A stretch of DNA of 32,000 nucleotides, from positions 2,940,001 through 2,972,000 of the forward strand of contig NZ_LT934425.1 in NCBI RefSeq assembly GCF_900232105.1. Direction: 5' to 3'. Position numbers and translations under genes: made by a program. Source of the stretch: Candidatus Kuenenia stuttgartensis (GTDB taxonomy: Bacteria > Planctomycetota > Brocadiia > Brocadiales > Brocadiaceae). Of the stretch, positions 20,891 through 31,881 are shown one piece after another. The stretch's first letter is position 1. The number at the start of each line of letters is the position of its first letter. The notes under the pieces were generated by a model, which was not told the origin of the DNA, did no database searches, and saw only the letters and a list, made by a program, of their open reading frames with translations.

Positions 20891-22330
20891 ATGAAAAGAA
20901 ACAGCATATTGAGCTATATAGGGATAATCTGTATTTCGCTGGTATTCAAAGGCTGTGCGCCTATGTTGTCACAAAAAACAGAAAATAGCAGCGTTCCTGA
21001 AAGTTATAATAATGTACAGGATACAGTCAATACGGCAGAGGTTAGTTGGATGAAATTTTTCACCGATACCAGTCTTATAGCCCTGATTGATACCGCACTG
21101 CAAAACAACCAGGAACTGAATATCACTTTGCAGGAAATTATCATTGCCGAAAATGAAGTACAAGCCAGAAAAGGGGAATATCTGCCTTTTGTAAATCTTA
21201 AGATGGGAGCCGGGGCTGAAAAGGTGGGCGAGTTTACCAGAAATGGGGCTGTTGAAGAAAACCTTGATATTAAATCCGGTAAGGAGTTCCCTGAACCACT
21301 GCCGGATTATTTGATATCTGCCAATGTTTCATGGGAAGTGGATATATGGAAAAAGTTGCGGAATGCCAAAAAAGCAGCAGCATTGAGGTATCTGTCCACA
21401 ATTGAAGGGAAAAATTTCATAGTAACTAAGCTGATTGCCGAAATATCCAGTTCTTATTACGAACTGATGGCGCTCGATAACATGCTTGAAGTAGTAAAAA
21501 AGTACATTGAAATCCAAAAAAATGCCCTGAAAACCGTAAAGCTACAGAAAGAAGCAGCTAAAGCCACCGAACTGGCAGTGCGTAAGTTTGAAGCAGAGGT
21601 GCTCAAAAACCAAAGTTATCAGTACAATATTGAACAAAAGATCACGGAAACGGAGAACAGGATCAATTTCCTGGTGGGTAGATTCCCACAGCCTGTTCAG
21701 CGAAATTCTCAGGGATATAATGATTTGGTGCCAGACACGATCCATGCCGGTCTCCCATCACAATTATTGACCAACCGTCCTGACATTAAACAAGCAGAAC
21801 TGGAGCTGGCAGCAGCAAAGCTGGATGTGAAAGTGGCGAGAGCACGGTTTTACCCTTCTTTAGACATTGTTGCAGGTGTAGGTTACCAGGCATTTGATCT
21901 GAAGTATTTAATAAGAACGCCAGAATCCATACTGTATAACCTGGCCGGAGAGTTGGCGGTACCCCTGATCAACAGAAACGCAATAAAGGCGACTTACAAC
22001 AATGCAAACGCAAAGCAAATACAGGCTGTTTACAATTACGAACGTACCGTTCTGAACGCTTACATTGAGGTTGTCAATAAACTGTCAAAGATCAGTAACC
22101 TGGGAAAAAATTATGACCTGAAGGCAAAGCAGGTGCAGGCGCTTACCCAGTCGATTACTATTGCAGATAACCTGTTCAAATCAGCCAGGGCCGATTATCT
22201 GGAAGTGTTAATGACCCAACGTGATGCGTTGGAAGCGAAAATGGAACTGATTGAAACGAAAGTACAGCAAATGAACGCAATGGTTAATATTTACCAGGCA
22301 TTGGGTGGGGGATGGAAGTCGATTATGTGA
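20891..22330 (+). CDS. Outer-membrane efflux factor (TolC/NodT family lipoprotein).
   Basis: 479 aa. The lipobox is LVFKGC. It has two tandem OEP repeats and ends ...NIYQALGGGW, as is typical of NodT-type OMFs. It is the third gene of the efflux operon. Confidence 0.9.
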   Translation: MKRNSILSYIGIICISLVFKGCAPMLSQKTENSSVPESYNNVQDTVNTAEVSWMKFFTDTSLIALIDTALQNNQELNITLQEIIIAENEVQARKGEYLPFVNLKMGAGAEKVGEFTRNGAVEENLDIKSGKEFPEPLPDYLISANVSWEVDIWKKLRNAKKAAALRYLSTIEGKNFIVTKLIAEISSSYYELMALDNMLEVVKKYIEIQKNALKTVKLQKEAAKATELAVRKFEAEVLKNQSYQYNIEQKITETENRINFLVGRFPQPVQRNSQGYNDLVPDTIHAGLPSQLLTNRPDIKQAELELAAAKLDVKVARARFYPSLDIVAGVGYQAFDLKYLIRTPESILYNLAGELAVPLINRNAIKATYNNANAKQIQAVYNYERTVLNAYIEVVNKLSKISNLGKNYDLKAKQVQALTQSITIADNLFKSARADYLEVLMTQRDALEAKMELIETKVQQMNAMVNIYQALGGGWKSIM

Positions 22331-22373
22331 TATACTAGTACATCGTTTCGTTAAAATGTGTACGTAAAAAAAT

Positions 22374-22453
22374 GTCATCGCGAGGGGTGGAGCGACGAAG
22401 CAATCTCTTGTTCCCAAAAAACTTAAGATTGCTTCGCTGTCGCTTGCAATGAC
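22374..22453. repeat. Long imperfect palindromic (REP-like) element between the efflux operon and the CRISPR trailer, a possible terminator.
   Basis: The outer arms are gtcatcgcgag and cttgcaatgac. The inner arms are gcgacgaagcaatct (22392-22406) and agattgcttcgctgtcgc (22426-22443). It belongs to the widespread gtcattgcgag...cgacgaagcaatc palindrome type (recall). Confidence 0.5.
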
Positions 22454-22474
22454 GGTATCAATGTAGATATTTTA

Positions 22475-25400
22475 ATGAAATGCCATACTAGGTAGAATGA
22501 AAACGAGGGCGGATAGCGGCTGGGTTTTTCCAGTTTCAAATTCTCATAGGTAGAATGAAAGTAACTATTCAGCGTAAACGATACACGGCTCGTTCCCAAA
22601 CTCCAGTTTGGGAACGCAATTGTTCGAGAAACTCCGGTTTCTCGCCTGTTTGCTGATAGATAGGGAATAAAATCACAGGGTTAAGACAGTTTGTAATTTG
22701 TAAAGTCAGACCCTCACCGGAAACAAAGTTTCCCGTGCAATTACGTTCTGATCTCCGGTAGTTTAATAAATTACGCTGAATAGTTACGAATGAAAACTCG
22801 CGGCGGGTAAGGTACAGCCACTCAAATAGTTGGTTTCAATTCCTCATAGGTAGAATGAAAACTCATTATAATAGTGCAACTTGTAATTCTCCCGTACCCG
22901 TTTCAATTCCTCATAGGTAGAATGAAAACACAAACGTGCAGATTAATAATACAGTTAGTGAAGGCCTGTTTCAATTCCTCATAGGTAGAATGAAAACAAG
23001 TTGCCGGAAAGTTGTATCAATCGGGAAAGTTTGTTTCAATTCCTCATAGGTAGAATGAAAACCGCGATCTTTGTGTTGCAGAAGACGAACAAGTTATTGG
23101 TTTCAATTCCTCATAGGTAGAATGAAAACATCCTGTCGCTTTTGGAAAGTGGATTTCGCCATCTTGTTTCAATTCCTCATAGGTAGAATGAAAACGCAGC
23201 TCGAATGGGCAAGGCATGTCGCGGCGCACGCGTTTCAATTCCTCATAGGTAGAATGAAAACGCTGGAGAGGCCACATTATAAAGGAGATATGGGAAAGTT
23301 TCAATTCCTCATAGGTAGAATGAAAACACTTCCATGACGAGACGGTGCTCTGGTACGTACCCGGTTTCAATTCCTCATAGGTAGAATGAAAACCAGGCGG
23401 CATCGATCCAATGTGCTTTGGGATAATCCGTTTCAATTCCTCATAGGTAGAATGAAAACAAAACTGTCAACATAAATTAACGAATGGTTTTTGCACGTTT
23501 CAATTCCTCATAGGTAGAATGAAAACTCGTCTTTCTCTCGTATTTCCCTGTATTCGTCTATCTGTTTCAATTCCTCATAGGTAGAATGAAAACTCTCGTT
23601 TAGAGTTAATGTATGGACTAGGACAAAGTTAGTTTCAATTCCTCATAGGTAGAATGAAAACGTCTGTCCGTATCCATTGCTGTCCTTTTTGCGGCTGTTT
23701 CAATCCCTCATAGGTAGAATGAAAACATTCACATAGAGAGACACTTAATATCCCTGCAATGTAGTTTCAATTCCTCATAGGTAGAATGAAAACATGAATT
23801 AAGCATTATGATTAAAATGAATTCTCAGAAGTTTCAATTCCTCATAGGTAGAATGAAAACCAAAAATCAAATGCTTCTGCATTTCCTTTTGAAAAAGTTT
23901 CAATTCCTCATAGGTAGAATGAAAACCATGCATATTTGGTAAATTCCCTAATGCAACATTTAAGTTTCAATTCCTCATAGGTAGAATGAAAACAAGGATT
24001 TTTTTGACGTCTCGAAAACTGGAAGTGTCGTTTCAATTCCTCATAGGTAGAATGAAAACCTGAATGCCAGGCGCAAAAGGAATTTGAAAAGGCGCGTTTC
24101 AATTCCTCATAGGTAGAATGAAAACCAAACTGTAGAGATGTTGGGAAACTGGACATTGCATTGTTTCAATTCCTCATAGGTAGAATGAAAACCAACCGCT
24201 GTAAAACAAATTTTTACGAGAAACATGGGTTTCAATTCCTCATAGGTAGAATGAAAACACTCAAGGGAACATTACATCAAGGACTTTATTGTCTTTGTTT
24301 CAATTCCTCATAGGTAGAATGAAAACGCGATAAATATTTTGTTTGTTCAAGTTGTAGAGATGTGTTTCAATTCCTCATAGGTAGAATGAAAACATTAAAA
24401 TCATAGCGAATAATAAAACTACTTACACTGGTTTCAATTCCTCATAGGTAGAATGAAAACGAAAAATGGCTAGTTCAGAAAAGAAAAATCGAACTCTGTT
24501 TCAATTCCTCATAGGTAGAATGAAAACGTCGTGCCGGGGGTGGAAAATTATTCACACGCGCAAGGTGGTTTCAATTCCTCATAGGTAGAATGAAAACGAT
24601 GCAGGATTCAAGGCAAAAATAGATGCCCTTCGGTTTCAATTCCTCATAGGTAGAATGAAAACTCGATTGCGTTCCCCGGCGTTGTCTCTAAGAATCCAGT
24701 TTCAATTCCTCATAGGTAGAATGAAAACAAACAAATACTCGCTAACATCCTCCCCCCGAACGAAGTTTCAATTCCTCATAGGTAGAATGAAAACTTGTGC
24801 CGCCAGTAAAATAATCAACCAGCCATTGCGTTTCAATTCCTCATAGGTAGAATGAAAACGGATTGGGTTTGGCGGGGCACTGGCTTTTGAACAAATGTTT
24901 CAATTCCTCATAGGTAGAATGAAAACATAAACTCCATTCTTTTCAAGTTTGCAGTCCATTGTCTGTTTCAATTCCTCATAGGTAGAATGAAAACCCCAGT
25001 TCAAATCCCAGGACGCAGGGATTTAACTTCGTTTCAATTCCTCATAGGTAGAATGAAAACTGTATTCCATGTATAGGCGTTTTCAATGCAATCTTCCAAG
25101 TTTCAATTCCTCATAGGTAGAATGAAAACGAAACTGCTGGGGACTATACCACTTTTGCGCCTTATCGGTTTCAATTCCTCATAGGTAGAATGAAAACCCG
25201 ATGCTTGTTTTTCCTCTCCGCTCATTTCCCCCGGTTTCAATTCCTCATAGGTAGAATGAAAACTTATTAATTGAAGAAATTTTTAGCGCGTCTGTGAGGG
25301 TTTCAATTCCTCATAGGTAGAATGAAAACTGAGACAACAACGATTGGATAGGTGGTATGATAGGCGTTTCAATTCCTCATAGGTAGAATGAAAACCAGAC

Positions 25401-28400
25401 AAATCCTGAATCTCTTTACCAATATTTTCCCGAGTTTCAATTCCTCATAGGTAGAATGAAAACGTAAAGAGGCATTAGCAACAGGCAGGGTACTGACCCG
25501 TTTCAATTCCTCATAGGTAGAATGAAAACATAAATCACATAACATTAATATATCATTATCAATATAGTTTCAATTCCTCATAGGTAGAATGAAAACCCGC
25601 CTCTGTTCAGCTTTTCGTTCTGTTTCTGTCTTGTTTCAATTCCTCATAGGTAGAATGAAAACGGCTATGCAGTACCAATACGTTGCGAGGTGGACTAGTT
25701 TCAATTCCTCATAGGTAGAATGAAAACGCGCTATAGAATCAAGTACCATGCTTGCCATATTCGTTTCAATTCCTCATAGGTAGAATGAAAACGCTTTTCC
25801 ACCGTCTTGAAAAAAGAGGAAAAGATAAGTTTCAATTCCTCATAGGTAGAATGAAAACTTTTAGAAGTGTCTAATAGATTTTGGGGGATAGAGGAAGTTT
25901 CAATTCCTCATAGGTAGAATGAAAACCAACTGCGGCGTTAACCCTTGCATTAGTATAATATGTTTCAATTCCTCATAGGTAGAATGAAAACCCTGCAATC
26001 ATCCTTTAAACCTTTATGCTTCAAACAGTTTCAATTCCTCATAGGTAGAATGAAAACTTGCATATCTACCTATGTAATTTTGTGCAAGGATTATGTTTCA
26101 ATTCCTCATAGGTAGAATGAAAACTTAAATTTAGAATGGGATTTCGTCAAATTTTGGTTCTGTTTCAATTCCTCATAGGTAGAATGAAAACGATTACTAT
26201 TATCAATTATATTTCGGACATAATACTTGTTTCAATTCCTCATAGGTAGAATGAAAACTAAAGTTTGTCCGAATTGCCTAATTCGCAAAGGGAATTGTTT
26301 CAATTCCTCATAGGTAGAATGAAAACAAAAACAAACATTGTTTCGGGCCACGGCAATAATTTAGTTTCAATTCCTCATAGGTAGAATGAAAACGGCAGTT
26401 CTACATTATATGTCTTTTTCTTTAACACTGTTTCAATTCCTCATAGGTAGAATGAAAACCTATATCTTTTCCTCCAACATAATATATTATGTTTTTGTTT
26501 CAATTCCTCATAGGTAGAATGAAAACGCACTACAAACACAACATTATCGCTGAGGGGGAAGAAGTTTCAATTCCTCATAGGTAGAATGAAAACGTTTTTG
26601 TTGTCTCAATATTCATTTCGGCTCCTTTTCGTTTCAATTCCTCATAGGTAGAATGAAAACATATAAAATTGTAACCGCAACACAAATGTACATCGTTAGT
26701 TTCAATTCCTCATAGGTAGAATGAAAACTTGTACCCGGATTGCTGAATTGCACAAAGCTGGGTTTCAATTCCTCATAGGTAGAATGAAAACGGTACTAAG
26801 GTACTAAGGTACTAAGGATAATACCAGGTTTCAATTCCTCATAGGTAGAATGAAAACTTGGAATTATGCAGAACTCTTTGATAAATTGGAAATAAAGTTT
26901 CAATTCCTCATAGGTAGAATGAAAACATAATTACAAACAGTAACATTATCGCCCAAACGATGTTTCAATTCCTCATAGGTAGAATGAAAACGGAAACGCT
27001 TGATACAGCTTTTCCAGCACATCTAGAGTTTCAATTCCTCATAGGTAGAATGAAAACCTGCTGCAAAGATTGCCAAAAGAAAAGCATTGCGGGTTTCAAT
27101 TCCTCATAGGTAGAATGAAAACCTGGCGTAGGTATTACGCTTACAGCCGCAAGACTGGGTTTCAATTCCTCATAGGTAGAATGAAAACGGGCATTGCACG
27201 CACAAGAATGGTTTTTAGGAAAAAGTTTCAATTCCTCATAGGTAGAATGAAAACGCTCAATTCCGCGAAAAGGCATTAGCAACGCTTGCGGGTTTCAATT
27301 CCTCATAGGTAGAATGAAAACTACCGGCATTTCAAAAAGAAGTAGAAGATTACTTCAAGTTTCAATTCCTCATAGGTAGAATGAAAACTGTGGCAAAAGA
27401 ATCCAGTATAATAGATTTCGGGTTGTGTTTCAATTCCTCATAGGTAGAATGAAAACCTTCAAATTCTCACGCCGTGGTTGATATGGAATTTTATGAGTTT
27501 CAATTCCTCATAGGTAGAATGAAAACAAATCCGAATGGAGCTGCAAGACCGGATTTCTTCCCTGTTTCAATTCCTCATAGGTAGAATGAAAACTAGATAT
27601 TGGAATTAAAACTATTAGTGGAATTAATTAGTTTCAATTCCTCATAGGTAGAATGAAAACTCAAGGGAACATTACATCAGGGACTTTATTGTCTTTGTTT
27701 CAATTCCTCATAGGTAGAATGAAAACTCTTTTTGGACACCCAAATAACCACATTAAACATATGTTTCAATTCCTCATAGGTAGAATGAAAACAATTCTTA
27801 AAAAAGATTTTCCTAAAGAAAGATTAAAGTTTCAATTCCTCATAGGTAGAATGAAAACGAATGGTTTTTCCACCTAACTTTGTTGTAGGCATTGTTTCAA
27901 TTCCTCATAGGTAGAATGAAAACTTTATTGCACTTGAATGGCAATGACCAATTATTATGTGTTTCAATTCCTCATAGGTAGAATGAAAACCCCCGATAGT
28001 AAACAACCATTCTTTGGACTTAGGGGTTTCAATTCCTCATAGGTAGAATGAAAACGCAAATTAAATAAACTTTTTGCTTCGATCTTGCACTCGTTTCAAT
28101 TCCTCATAGGTAGAATGAAAACTGGTATCCCTATCGCAGATGGAAGCGGCAAAATCGAGTTTCAATTCCTCATAGGTAGAATGAAAACGGCAGTACAAAT
28201 AAATATTATACAGACGCAAGGGTTAAGTTTCAATTCCTCATAGGTAGAATGAAAACGATAAATATCCCGTAGTACCGCTACCAGTCACGCTTTGGTTTCA
28301 ATTCCTCATAGGTAGAATGAAAACATTGAAATCGTACCGTATTTTAAGCGTGCTTGTGGTGGTTTCAATTCCTCATAGGTAGAATGAAAACTTGGTTCTG

Positions 28401-29923
28401 GCGTAACCGGAACAAGTACTTCTACGGGGTTTCAATTCCTCATAGGTAGAATGAAAACTACACAGACGCAAGGGTTAATGCTGCCGTTGGAAGTTGTTTC
28501 AATTCCTCATAGGTAGAATGAAAACTTATCTGTGCCGGTGCCGGCATTAGACAGGATGTACGAGTTTCAATTCCTCATAGGTAGAATGAAAACTTTTAGA
28601 CTCTGGCGAGATTTTGAGCGGTAATATTTAGTTTCAATTCCTCATAGGTAGAATGAAAACGTTTGCTTTTTCTTTGTTCAAAGCATGCCATTTTTTGTTT
28701 CAATTCCTCATAGGTAGAATGAAAACATTTTAAATTATTTTATTATTTTATTATTTTAATATGTTTCAATTCCTCATAGGTAGAATGAAAACCCAAGAAG
28801 GAGATTATGTTTGGGTTCAGTTGCAAGAGTTTCAATTCCTCATAGGTAGAATGAAAACAGATGAAAATGGTATGCTTTTTGAGAAGTATGGAAAAGGTTT
28901 CAATTCCTCATAGGTAGAATGAAAACAACTCACTCAGTGGTGAAAACCATCGAGGGTAGCAGGTTTCAATTCCTCATAGGTAGAATGAAAACGGACATAT
29001 TTTCTGGTTTGTTCATAATTATAGTCTAGTTTCAATTCCTCATAGGTAGAATGAAAACGGTATGCTGCGCATAAAGAAGATCGAAAAATTTACAGTTTCA
29101 ATTCCTCATAGGTAGAATGAAAACGGTTTTGTCAAATTTGCGCAAGAAGGAGATTATGTTGTTTCAATTCCTCATAGGTAGAATGAAAACGCAAGCCATT
29201 AAAAAGTCTTAAAAATGGTTCGGTTTCTTGTTTCAATTCCTCATAGGTAGAATGAAAACCAGTGCAGTGCAGTGCAGTGCGTAGCACTGAAGCACGTTTC
29301 AATTCCTCATAGGTAGAATGAAAACCTTAAAGAAACGCAGGAAAGAAAAGCTAAATATTTGGTTTCAATTCCTCATAGGTAGAATGAAAACACTTAAAGA
29401 AACGCAGGAAAGAAAAGCTAAATATTTGGTTTCAATTCCTCATAGGTAGAATGAAAACTTAAACTAAAGGCAAAAAAAGCCTATGCCGAAAACCCGTTTC
29501 AATTCCTCATAGGTAGAATGAAAACCAAAAAATCGCATTTTTCATGGGGTTTTTCAACAGCAGTTTCAATTCCTCATAGGTAGAATGAAAACAAATTATT
29601 AGAAAAGCAAAAAGTTTTTGCAAAACTAGGTTTCAATTCCTCATAGGTAGAATGAAAACGTTAGAGAATATCTTAAAAAGGAGAAAAAGCCTAAGTTTCA
29701 ATTCCTCATAGGTAGAATGAAAACGCATGATGGGGAAGATTATTGTCAAGATTGTTTTGAGTTTCAATTCCTCATAGGTAGAATGAAAACGTAGTAAAAT
29801 CAATACAGACCGGAGATATAATAATATGTTTCAATTCCTCATAGGTAGAATGAAAACTTATTGCCGTATCTCTTACATATGCTCTAAACAATTGTTTCAA
29901 TTCCTCATAGGTAGAATGAAAAC
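22475..29923 (-). CRISPR. CRISPR array with 109 repeats and 108 spacers. The repeat on the transcribed minus strand is GTTTTCATTCTACCTATGAGGAATTGAAAC.
   Basis: I located every repeat by hand.
- 107 copies of GTTTCAATTCCTCATAGGTAGAATGAAAAC lie from 22833 to 29923 at a 65-70 bp period. One copy carries a SNP (23697-23726, T>C at position 9).
- One copy has 2 mismatches and is split by an insertion (22533-22560 plus 22788-22797).
- The terminal copy is half-degenerate (22475-22504).
- Spacers are 33-40 nt; the terminal one is 28 nt.
- Orientation follows from the degenerate end lying distal to the cas genes, the AT-rich leader next to cas2, and the repeat ending ATTGAAAC, the 8-nt tag typical of Cas6-processed type I-B/III repeats. 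Confidence 0.98.
22561..22787. mobile_element. 227-bp non-autonomous element (MITE) inserted in the second-oldest CRISPR repeat.
   Basis: It has perfect 17-bp terminal inverted repeats: GTAACTATTCAGCGTAA (22561-22577) and TTACGCTGAATAGTTAC (22771-22787). They are flanked by an 8-bp direct duplication, gaatgaaa (22553-22560 and 22788-22795). Removing the element plus one duplicate restores a 30-nt repeat. There is no ORF, and the interior holds two REP-like hairpins. Confidence 0.8.
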
Positions 29924-30061
29924 CAGCCATTTAAGCGAGATAAGACGTTCTGCAGCGCTTTTTAAACAATTTTAAAAGGAAAAATGCCATAAATTTCTAA
30001 AAATGTTATACATTTTCTGTCGATCTTTAATAGATTTTTCTGTATCAAAGGTCGACAGATG
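29924..30061 (-). promoter_or_regulatory. CRISPR leader.
   Basis: A 138-bp AT-rich segment between the cas2 stop (30062) and the first repeat (29923). It contains the inverted repeat tctgtcga.c ... g.tcgacaga (about 30017-30026 and 30050-30059). The promoter is not pinpointed. Confidence 0.6.
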
Positions 30062-30334
30062 TTAAATAAATTGAATATCATCCTTTTTATCCATGCCATA
30101 AACACATCTATCATAGTATTTCATTTGTCTGAATTTATAAACGATAATTGAATCGTTATCTTCACTTTTAATTATTTTTTTAAGTTCTAAAATCATTTTT
30201 TCATATGCAGCTTCTGATATTTCACCTTCAAAAACCGAATTTTGAACCCATTGAAGATACTTACGGCAAGCCTTCACCATTTTTCCGCAATGCTTACTGT
30301 TGACATCATAGTACAATATAACAAACATTACCAA
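30062..30334 (-). CDS. cas2: CRISPR-associated endoribonuclease Cas2.
   Basis: 90 aa. The sequence MVMFVILYYDV...KACRKYLQWVQNSVFEGEIS...SIIVYKF is a typical Cas2 ferredoxin-fold pattern. It overlaps cas1 by 7 nt and adjoins the leader. Confidence 0.9.
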   Translation of the reverse strand: MVMFVILYYDVNSKHCGKMVKACRKYLQWVQNSVFEGEISEAAYEKMILELKKIIKSEDNDSIIVYKFRQMKYYDRCVYGMDKKDDIQFI

Positions 30335-31323
30335 TCCATAACAAAGGGTTTGTATGTTTCCTCTTCCATAAGATGTTTTTCCAGTTTGTAAAGCTCCAGC
30401 CTCATGAGTCTTCGATAACTTACCTGTTTATTCAACCCGGAATGTTTAATCGTTTCTTTCAGACGTTCTTCCATGTATTGAAGAAATCGTTTTCTTGCGG
30501 AGTCTTTTAATAGTATTCCGTTCAACTGTTTTTCAAAATCGTTTTCTGTAATGATTTTTTTGTTGAGTACGGCAAAAATTGTCCTGTCACCTATAACGGG
30601 CTTAAATATTTCTGCCACATCCAGGTTAAGTGTGAATCTCCTGAAGTTGGTTGTGTGGAGAAACCCTATGCGCGGGTCAAGGTGTGTCTGGTATATTTCG
30701 GAAAGCACATAGGAATATATCACTGAATTAGAGAAACTTATCAGGGTGTTTAAAAAATCTCTGGGCGGCCTTTTTGTACGCCTTTCAAAGGAAAACTCCG
30801 GATCGTCAATAATACAATTAAAGGCGTTGTAGTATAATTGCTTTATCTGGCCTTCAATGGCCATTGCCTTTTCAATACTTTCCTGTTCTTCAAGTTTTGA
30901 AAGAATATCTTCTATCCCGTTTATGTACTGCGTGAGGTCTTTCCCCCGTCTTTCATAATACTTCAGAATCTTAAGGCAGTTTTTTACGGCGCCCTCAATG
31001 AACTTCTTTGCAATAAACTGTCTTTTCGTCTCGTCGGTATAATGGTCTGCCTGTCTTAGAATCATAAAGCCTGAATTGTAATGCTCCCTGGGATAAAAAC
31101 TGCCGGCATAATAGCCGTAGTAATTAAAATAGGAGAGGACGATTTCGTTTTGGGATAGAAAGTTAAGCACCTTCGAGTTCAGATCCGTCTCTCCGAACAT
31201 AAAGATTTCCTTTGTGTTCTCAACGGGAATAAATTTCTTATTTCCATCTTCGGTTTCAAAGAAAAGGGTATTGTCTTTCCGTTTAAGGCGTCCGTTTGAA
31301 AATATATATACAGTTTCTTTCAT
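30328..31323 (-). CDS. cas1: CRISPR-associated integrase Cas1.
   Basis: 331 aa. MKETVYIFSNGRLKRKDNTLFF..., AMAIEGQIKQLYYNAFN, RTKRPPRDFLNTLISFSNSVIY, DPRIGFLHT and NLDVAEIFKPVIGDR match the conserved Cas1 blocks, with a type I-B-like flavour. Confidence 0.92.
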   Translation of the reverse strand: MKETVYIFSNGRLKRKDNTLFFETEDGNKKFIPVENTKEIFMFGETDLNSKVLNFLSQNEIVLSYFNYYGYYAGSFYPREHYNSGFMILRQADHYTDETKRQFIAKKFIEGAVKNCLKILKYYERRGKDLTQYINGIEDILSKLEEQESIEKAMAIEGQIKQLYYNAFNCIIDDPEFSFERRTKRPPRDFLNTLISFSNSVIYSYVLSEIYQTHLDPRIGFLHTTNFRRFTLNLDVAEIFKPVIGDRTIFAVLNKKIITENDFEKQLNGILLKDSARKRFLQYMEERLKETIKHSGLNKQVSYRRLMRLELYKLEKHLMEEETYKPFVMDW

Positions 31324-31329
31324 GATTGT

Positions 31330-31881
31330 TTACGACCAGCAAAATTCAAGATATGAGCACGTCTTGCAAAACTTTACCCAAACTTTTTCCGGGGCAGATT
31401 CTTGTTGAATCAGATATTTGATTTTTGCGATTAAATTTTCGACCTCTATTATGCGTTCATCTGTTAATTCTACTGGCACTACCTTTTTTTCTTTTGGTAT
31501 CCGGATCTCCCCTTTGATGGTTCGATCTTTTCTTGAAACATTATAAAGATAAAAGAGCAATTGCATTTGGGAAGCCTCAATCATCCTGGAACTCTTTTTC
31601 GTTTCAATTAAGGTAATAATGCCATCTTTCTGTCTGATAACGTCAATTTTACTACCGTCTATCAGTATTTCCTTTTTATCCCTTTTGTATGTTTCTTCTG
31701 AAAGCAGGCGACCGATAGCAATAAATTCATTATACTGATTACCCGATATATTCCTGGACATCAACCACGCCTGTCTTTGGCAAACAACATATGCCTGCAA
31801 TATTGACCCTGTTACTTTTAGCTGGTCAGACAAAAATAGCCTCTCTTTCTCCGACAGTCTTTTTAAATCCCTCCTGATCAA
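31330..31881 (-). CDS. cas4: CRISPR-associated exonuclease Cas4 (RecB-like, Fe-S).
   Basis: 183 aa. It has an N-terminal Cys (YVVCQRQAWL), a D...E.K core (IDVIRQKDGIITLIETKKS) and a C-terminal C..C.....C (FCKTCSYLEFC). The track start is a TTG that overlaps the upstream ORF by 56 nt. An internal TTG at 31833, preceded by GAGAAAGAGAGG, is an alternative start. Confidence 0.85.
   Translation of the reverse strand: MIRRDLKRLSEKERLFLSDQLKVTGSILQAYVVCQRQAWLMSRNISGNQYNEFIAIGRLLSEETYKRDKKEILIDGSKIDVIRQKDGIITLIETKKSSRMIEASQMQLLFYLYNVSRKDRTIKGEIRIPKEKKVVPVELTDERIIEVENLIAKIKYLIQQESAPEKVWVKFCKTCSYLEFCWS

Follow-up and report, generated by a model that had tools for sequence, protein, structure and literature searches.

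A repeat of a CRISPR array in Candidatus Kuenenia stuttgartiensis strain MBR1 is split by a 227-bp non-coding element, here designated MITE-1. It is very probably a miniature inverted-repeat transposable element (MITE) of the IS66 family, ISBst12 group, that transposed into this type I-B repeat and has since become fixed. The element and its host array lie in a stretch of 32,000 nucleotides (the window; positions 2,940,001 to 2,972,000 of the forward strand of contig NZ_LT934425.1), whose coordinates are used throughout unless genome positions are specified.

Structure of MITE-1 and its insertion site

The boundaries of MITE-1 (22561-22787) had been proposed in an earlier sequence-only reading of the window, and were recovered by a repeat finder as two arms of 17 nt each, 100% complementary and spaced 193 nt apart, which constitute perfect terminal inverted repeats (TIRs). 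From 22533 to 22797 the DNA comprises 28 nt of CRISPR repeat, the 227-bp element, and then GAATGAAA followed by AC, and excision in silico (22533-22560 joined to 22796-22797) yields a repeat of 30 nt; the 8-bp target-site duplication (TSD) and the split repeat described in the same reading are both present. Its designation of that repeat as the second holds when counting from the trailer begins with the 16-nt remnant at 22489-22504 as repeat 1. The restored repeat departs from GTTTCAATTCCTCATAGGTAGAATGAAAAC, the consensus of the other 107, by two substitutions (T>A at plus-strand position 8 and C>T at position 10). No transposase gene is found within MITE-1, whose longest open reading frame (ORF) is 35 aa, and the lack of coding capacity claimed at the outset therefore holds. 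Of two hairpins assigned earlier, the one at 22591-22616 is exact (11-bp stem, 4-nt loop), whereas the other, placed at 22629-22648, is actually located 4 nt away, at 22625-22644; a third, imperfect hairpin occupies 22715-22737. The 22591-22616 module belongs to a hairpin family dispersed across the Kuenenia genome and related genomes, and RNA copied from MITE-1 is predicted to fold strongly (-78 kcal/mol, z = -6.5).

The MITE-1 family

Searches of the MBR1 genome covered its single contig of 4,406,153 bp (41.1% GC, 18.8% non-coding, assembled from single-molecule real-time (SMRT) reads at 419x; PMC5854607). A BLAST search with MITE-1 returned 71 matches, and a script pairing compatible ends delineated 52 elements, most of them with 8-bp duplications, in classes of 127, 227, 249-258, 280 and 302 bp as well as larger ones. 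The 17-mer end of MITE-1 occurs about 174 times when up to two mismatches are allowed, in several subfamilies that have different cores and common termini, and the size of the family is estimated at 85-87 elements. Sibling classes of 127, 258, 280, 302 and 412 bp carry the same 17-bp ends, 8-bp TSDs and hairpin modules. Perfect 8-bp TSDs flank 30 elements in the genome, and a further three have TSDs with one mismatch. With ends and duplications recurring so often, a chance origin of the pattern can be set aside. The 30 perfect duplications follow the pattern N-A-W-W-W-W-W-N with an A+T content of 77%, compared with 59% for the genome, and GAATGAAA conforms to this pattern.

Alignment of the family reveals a modular construction, in which the ends are constant while hairpin modules (GTTCCCAAAC, a loop, and GTTTGGGAAC) are present or absent and have short or long loops. 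The copy in the CRISPR array is the sole 227-bp combination, with a short first hairpin and without the second hairpin module. Some copies within one size class are identical at different sites; together with the TSDs, these suggest that MITE-1 has been mobile. The short length, the lack of an ORF, the TIRs, the TSD and the many copies all bear out the initial description of MITE-1 as a MITE, and the finding of sibling copies and of a related insertion sequence (IS) in the genome removes the objection that no such relatives exist.

Beyond this genome, the family is present in three genomes of the same genus and in one other genus of the same taxonomic family, and more distant relatives match MITE-1 by its hairpin segment only. 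An exact 28-nt end of MITE-1 was also found in metagenome-assembled genomes titled Candidatus Kuenenia sp. and Candidatus Brocadiaceae bacterium. For a sibling 258-bp copy, the corresponding places fetched from other strains are either filled or end short of the site, and no polymorphism was seen there. A text search of the literature found no MITEs described in Kuenenia, nor did two genome papers (including PMC5854607) report any. The description of this family is new, but elements of its kind are already known.

A candidate autonomous partner

The genome also contains a 1.72-kb IS that would be the most suitable source of a transposase acting on MITE-1. Three copies are intact (1717-1724 bp), each with one long ORF of 442 or 473 aa and flanked by 8-bp TSDs (AAATTTTG, CAAATTTC and GACAAAAG), and about four additional copies are interrupted. 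The 473-aa transposase matches PF03050 (Pfam DDE_Tnp_IS66; E 5e-50, 170.9 bits against a cut-off of 23.1) and NF033517 (NCBIfam transpos_IS66; 309.8 bits against a cut-off of 180). The left end of this IS, GTAACTATTCAGCG, is identical to the end of MITE-1 over the outer 14 nt, and the sequence beyond is unrelated; its right end starts with GTAT or GTAA, depending on the copy. As only the termini are shared, MITE-1 is not a simple internal deletion derivative of the 1.72-kb IS.

The IS66 assignment, made from recall in the sequence-only reading, is upheld by the presence in the same genome of an IS with 14 nt of identical end sequence, 8-bp TSDs and a transposase recognized by IS66 models. The accompanying proposal, that MITE-1 is a non-autonomous element mobilized in trans, is likewise supported, on sequence grounds, by ends that match an IS with three intact copies. 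In size, single ORF, 8-bp repeat and end sequence, the 1.72-kb IS fits the ISBst12 group of the IS66 family, whose traits are well established. No TnpA/TnpB accessory genes were seen among its long ORFs, of which there is one.

A useful comparison is ISDge4, an ISBst12-group element of Deinococcus geothermalis whose ends are GTAACTGCTCAGCA and GTGACTACTCAGCA and which has an 8-bp repeat and encodes one transposase, of 449 aa (PMC12898284). The partner IS resembles it in having a single transposase ORF (473 versus 449 aa), 8-bp direct repeats and a GTAAC start, and GTAACTATTCAGCG matches GTAACTGCTCAGCA of ISDge4 at 12 of 14 positions. MITE-1 itself differs from members of the ISBst12 group in being a non-coding derivative of 227 bp with only the ends in common; no published MITEs of this group were found in the literature searched.

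Age of the insertion

Corresponding loci of other assemblies were fetched by means of exact Cas1 and TolC-like proteins. The 570 bp extending from the stop codon of the TolC-like gene into the array, including both MITE-1 and a second, unrelated MITE (MITE-2), are 100% identical in CP049055.1 (strain CSTR1), GCA_048500235.1 and GCA_027493735.1. The exact 227-bp MITE-1 with the same TSD is also found in the metagenome contig JAANMT010006384.1, and in three further assemblies the sequence of the insertion site is present up to contig ends. In all, four additional assemblies have partial copies of MITE-1 where contigs end. The arrays of other strains share 56-83 spacers with that of MBR1, all on the trailer side. 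An identical insertion in assemblies with different spacer sets argues that it predates the divergence of these strains and dozens of spacer acquisitions, and that it is not an artefact; the objection that it might be chimeric fails in view of its occurrence in at least five independent assemblies.

All assemblies covering the site are filled. None carries the uninterrupted repeat, no presence/absence polymorphism was found among them, and the comparison of related strains therefore provides the filled state only. An exact-pattern junction scan of genome contigs gave no match, and a similar scan of metagenomes returned two contigs, both filled. In two relatives compared at the species level, an orthologue of the TolC-like gene is present, with no array downstream. 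As judged from these comparisons, the insertion is old and fixed in the sampled Kuenenia strains.

One contig departs from this uniformity within the element itself. In JAANMU010024503.1, MITE-1 continues up to window position 22754 and is then followed (from 265 onward) by other sequence, which later matches the MBR1 genome at 2108159-2109465. In some populations there may have been a nested insertion, or else a rearrangement, at this point. Two assemblies break MITE-1 at the same internal position, 22754: JAANMU010024503.1 and another, in which it is the contig end.

The host array and the consequence of the insertion

The array contains 109 repeats in total, namely 107 canonical repeats, the interrupted repeat and the 16-nt remnant. 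Beyond the right edge of the window, cas6, a gene in the cas8b position, cas7, cas5b and cas3 continue on the minus strand. The proteins identified are Cas6, Cas7/Csh2, Cas5b, Cas3 (HD and helicase), Cas4, Cas1 and Cas2, and the 655-aa protein in the cas8b position had no family match. By this gene content, the host locus is a type I-B CRISPR-Cas system, the type also given to it by Ding and Adrian, who described a 30-bp repeat and a 138-bp leader beside the cas genes (PMC7709395). They found 45 spacers at the far end of the array to be common to three strains (PMC7709395). The genes from cas6 to cas2 lie on the minus strand beside the leader, and strain-specific spacers are located at the cas end while shared spacers are located at the MITE-1 end; this polarity places the leader at the right and MITE-1 at the oldest end of the array, and suggests that the array is transcribed on the minus strand. 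On that strand the repeat terminates in ATTGAAAC.

The course of events that we propose begins with recognition of the 14-17-nt ends of MITE-1 by a DDE transposase, namely the 473-aa enzyme encoded by the resident 1.72-kb IS or its counterpart in a close relative. This enzyme would have inserted the element at the A/T-rich 8-bp sequence GAATGAAA inside the repeat, duplicating the site, before the sampled Kuenenia strains diverged. Transcription of the array would proceed from the leader beside the cas genes along the minus strand, on which the order is spacer 107, repeat nt 1-10, MITE-1, repeat nt 3-30, spacer 108 and the 16-nt remnant. Owing to the 8-bp duplication, an unbroken stretch of 28 of the 30 repeat nucleotides persists downstream of MITE-1 and includes the expected Cas6 cut position; type I-B Cas6 enzymes cut 8 nt from the 3' end of the repeat. 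No terminator-like site facing the minus strand was found in 22250-23000, and neither a promoter nor a terminator was found inside MITE-1 in the sense direction of the array. Read-through, and Cas6 cutting at the interrupted repeat, would probably continue.

The CRISPR RNA (crRNA) of spacer 107 alone would then be altered, by a structured 3' extension of about 255 nt carrying MITE-1. That of spacer 108 would already have been impaired, its 5' handle being changed at the first base and the last repeat truncated. The number of crRNAs expected to be affected is thus one, or at most two, of 108. The 106 other spacers and all cas genes are intact. The insertion would accordingly be near-neutral and of negligible cost, persisting in a CRISPR trailer that amounts to dispensable DNA, and such a negligible expected cost fits the long persistence of MITE-1 at this end of the array.

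Alternative explanations

Several observations weigh against parts of this account. The state before insertion is reconstructed and not observed. The copy in the array has a length seen in no other and is 3-4% divergent from its nearest siblings over shared segments, so that no direct source copy was recognized. The core of MITE-1 is unrelated to the 1.72-kb IS, and end positions 15-17 also differ (TAA as opposed to AAA or TAT), which makes that IS the best candidate and not a proven mobilizer. Finally, with regard to the direction of transcription, a crude sigma-70 scan of the leader detected no minus-strand promoter, and Rfam scores the array repeat on the plus strand.

These differences in the ends bear on the identity of the mobilizer. 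MITE-1 could be a true MITE moved by another transposase, either that of a lost IS66-group element or that of a second resident IS66-family IS. The latter is 2380 bp in length (for example, genome positions 1937971-1940350), is present in 4-5 copies with GTAAC ends, TIR GTAACACTTTAGTTCTTTGAAAAATTAA and 8-bp duplications, and has a transposase that shares just 24% identity with the one encoded by the 1.72-kb IS. The proposal gains from the fact that the 1.72-kb IS shares only the outer 14 nt with MITE-1, with unrelated subterminal sequence. We nevertheless regard it as unlikely, in that the TIR of the 2.38-kb IS (GTAACACTTTAGTTC) agrees with MITE-1 over GTAAC only, whereas the 1.72-kb IS matches at 14 of 14 nt and is resident in intact copies; moreover, several MITE subfamilies with different cores and the same ends are what would be expected from one resident transposase.

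A different view grants the transposition and assigns the element a present function: MITE-1, perhaps with MITE-2, would have been co-opted, either as a terminator or insulator separating the array from the convergent resistance-nodulation-division (RND)/TolC efflux operon, or to regulate trailer transcripts. The only plus-strand terminator-like site downstream of the TolC-like gene is indeed that at 22625-22644, inside MITE-1, and all strains examined have kept this arrangement. However, the strains are more than 99% identical in nucleotide sequence (PMC7709395), so this conservation carries no weight; the terminator match occurs at background frequency (one found in 22250-23000, with 0.6 expected), and the further ISs found at or inside these MITEs in some strains do not suggest constraint. 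Co-option in this general sense is accordingly given little credence. Scarcely more can be accorded to its specific form, in which MITE-1 and MITE-2 together would be a fixed, hairpin-rich insulator that ends RND-efflux transcripts before they enter the array in antisense and also ends the precursor crRNA. Were this reading true, the locus would regularly produce precursor crRNA with MITE RNA inside it.

A transposed MITE is also to be distinguished from a cluster of hairpins resembling repetitive extragenic palindromic (REP) sequences or bacterial interspersed mosaic elements (BIMEs), whose spread would be due to a Y1 (RAYT) transposase or to recombination. REP-like hairpins (GTTCCCAAAC...GTTTGGGAAC) do occur outside the MITEs and in distant relatives, in both orientations. 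To our knowledge, REP and BIME elements have neither long terminal inverted repeats nor 8-bp target duplications, and are spread by Y1 transposases. The 17-bp TIRs, the 30 elements with perfect 8-bp TSDs and the ends matching a DDE-type IS thus make such an origin very improbable; only the internal hairpins are REP-like, and these vary as modules between constant ends. As for an assembly or chimeric artefact, a repetitive element with about 85 copies may mislead assemblers, and several short-read assemblies do break inside it, but the recovery of the insertion in a single SMRT contig at 419x (PMC5854607), and of the same junctions and TSD in CSTR1 and at least three independent assemblies with differing spacer content, leaves this a practically negligible prospect.

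Is the array a preferred target?

The sequence-only reading took the insertion to show that the array itself is a target of transposition. With about 87 elements in 4.4 Mb, 0.15 MITE-1 hits are expected in the 7.4-kb array and one is observed; the expectation rises to about 0.8 if the elements are confined to the 18.8% of the genome that is non-coding (coding density from PMC5854607). Another 107 identical copies of GAATGAAA within the array carry no element. One hit being at chance level for non-coding DNA, a preference for the array as a target is not supported; the Kuenenia genome is simply rich in mobile DNA. The converse, an array directed against this transposon, was abandoned, as none of 169 spacers matches MITE-1 or the IS66-family IS. 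Also rejected was an origin by Cas1-Cas2 mis-integration or from a casposon-like element, because the insertion lies off the repeat-spacer boundary and has DDE-type ends.

Features of the locus

Coordinates are collected in Table 1. MITE-2, on the trailer side of the array, has about 22 full copies in the genome, and a search of that genome allowing up to 5 mismatches in 26 nt found no autonomous partner for it. It truncates terminal repeat 109 to 16 nt, and the TolC-like gene has its stop codon 4 nt before the left CTAG of MITE-2. Some other strains have an extra IS of about 1.9 kb at that CTAG.

Table 1. Features of the CRISPR trailer and adjoining locus, in window coordinates
Feature	Position	Strand	Details
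MITE-1	22561..22787		Probable non-autonomous element of IS66/ISBst12 type; 227 bp; no ORF >35 aa
MITE-1 left TIR	22561..22577	+	GTAACTATTCAGCGTAA; outer 14 nt equal left end of 1.72-kb IS
MITE-1 right TIR	22771..22787	-	Exact complement of left TIR
MITE-1 TSD, copy 1	22553..22560		GAATGAAA; repeat plus-strand positions 21-28
MITE-1 TSD, copy 2	22788..22795		GAATGAAA
MITE-1 first hairpin module	22591..22616		CGTTCCCAAAC / loop TCCA / GTTTGGGAACG
MITE-1 second hairpin	22625..22644	+	8-bp stem, then plus-strand T-rich tail
Interrupted repeat, larger part	22533..22560	-	Repeat 108 from leader; minus-strand nt 3-30; expected Cas6 cut site; 2 substitutions
Interrupted repeat, smaller part	22788..22797	-	Minus-strand nt 1-10
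Spacer 107	22798..22832	-	
Spacer 108	22505..22532	-	Oldest; between interrupted repeat and truncated remnant
Terminal-repeat remnant	22489..22504	-	16 nt; cut exactly at MITE-2
Canonical repeats of type I-B array	22833..29923	-	107 repeats of 30 nt; match Rfam CRISPR-DR2
Leader	29924..30061	-	138 bp; between cas2 and first repeat (PMC7709395)
cas4, cas1, cas2	30062..31881	-	
MITE-2	22339..22487		149 bp; unrelated to MITE-1; imperfect TIRs
CTAG duplication	22335-22338 and 22488-22491		Flanks MITE-2
Outer-membrane efflux (TolC-like) gene	20891..22330	+	Convergent with array

Between cas7 and cas5 of the I-B operon, the gene calls of the other assemblies include a 64-aa ORF and a gene for a PemK-like toxin (110-113 aa). 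This spot corresponds to a gap in the cas operon of MBR1 (4167-4734 of that locus piece).

Known parallels and other arrays

Transposable elements in CRISPR loci have precedents, among them IS6110, which is inserted in the direct-repeat (CRISPR) locus of Mycobacterium tuberculosis. Insertions of ISs and MITEs in cas genes and CRISPR-Cas loci have also been reviewed (PMC10359306). As in those cases, the Kuenenia insertion illustrates that transposable elements land in CRISPR-Cas loci and can become fixed there; the difference is that those cases concern autonomous ISs, or hits in cas genes with loss of immunity, whereas Kuenenia keeps its cas genes intact and has 106 spacers upstream of MITE-1. 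Another parallel is the 134-nt MITE between CR_6 and CR_7 in Anabaena sp. PCC 7120 (Hou et al. 2019, as cited in bioRxiv 10.1101/2020.04.14.041012), which, from the account in the citing preprint, is also a miniature inverted-repeat element dividing a CRISPR array. The two differ in organism, MITE family and CRISPR type, and in that the Kuenenia insertion lies at the extreme trailer, where almost nothing is separated from the leader. The occurrence of MITEs and ISs in CRISPR arrays is therefore already known, and knowledge of CRISPR or of transposition is unchanged by this case. What the MITE-1 family does offer is a clean worked example, comprising about 85 elements of IS66/ISBst12 type in several size classes together with their likely driver, in a genome known for transposase-driven rearrangements. 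From the standpoint of annotation, CRISPR finders will stop this array one or two units early, and the fixed MITE-1 is a stable landmark in an array used for ordering Kuenenia strains, marking its ancestral end.

Mobile elements were also encountered in or near other arrays of this genome. The original description of the MBR1 genome listed "four CRISPRs" at 489,976-498,766 (PMC5854607). We find at 489976-498765 of the genome a second array of 51 repeats, with three ISs (of the IS4, IS1634 and ISAs1 families) inserted in spacers and one half-repeat unit; its division by the three ISs explains the "four CRISPRs" as one array. Two spacers of other arrays (490331-490366 and 109470-109506) have 100% matches over 36 nt to the organism's own chromosome, at 2982506-2982471 and 1837323-1837288, and possibly reflect self-targeting or prophage targets. 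A truncated copy of MITE-1 and a lone end are located at genome positions 92118-93207, within 1.7 kb of a third CRISPR array that extends from 93784 onward.

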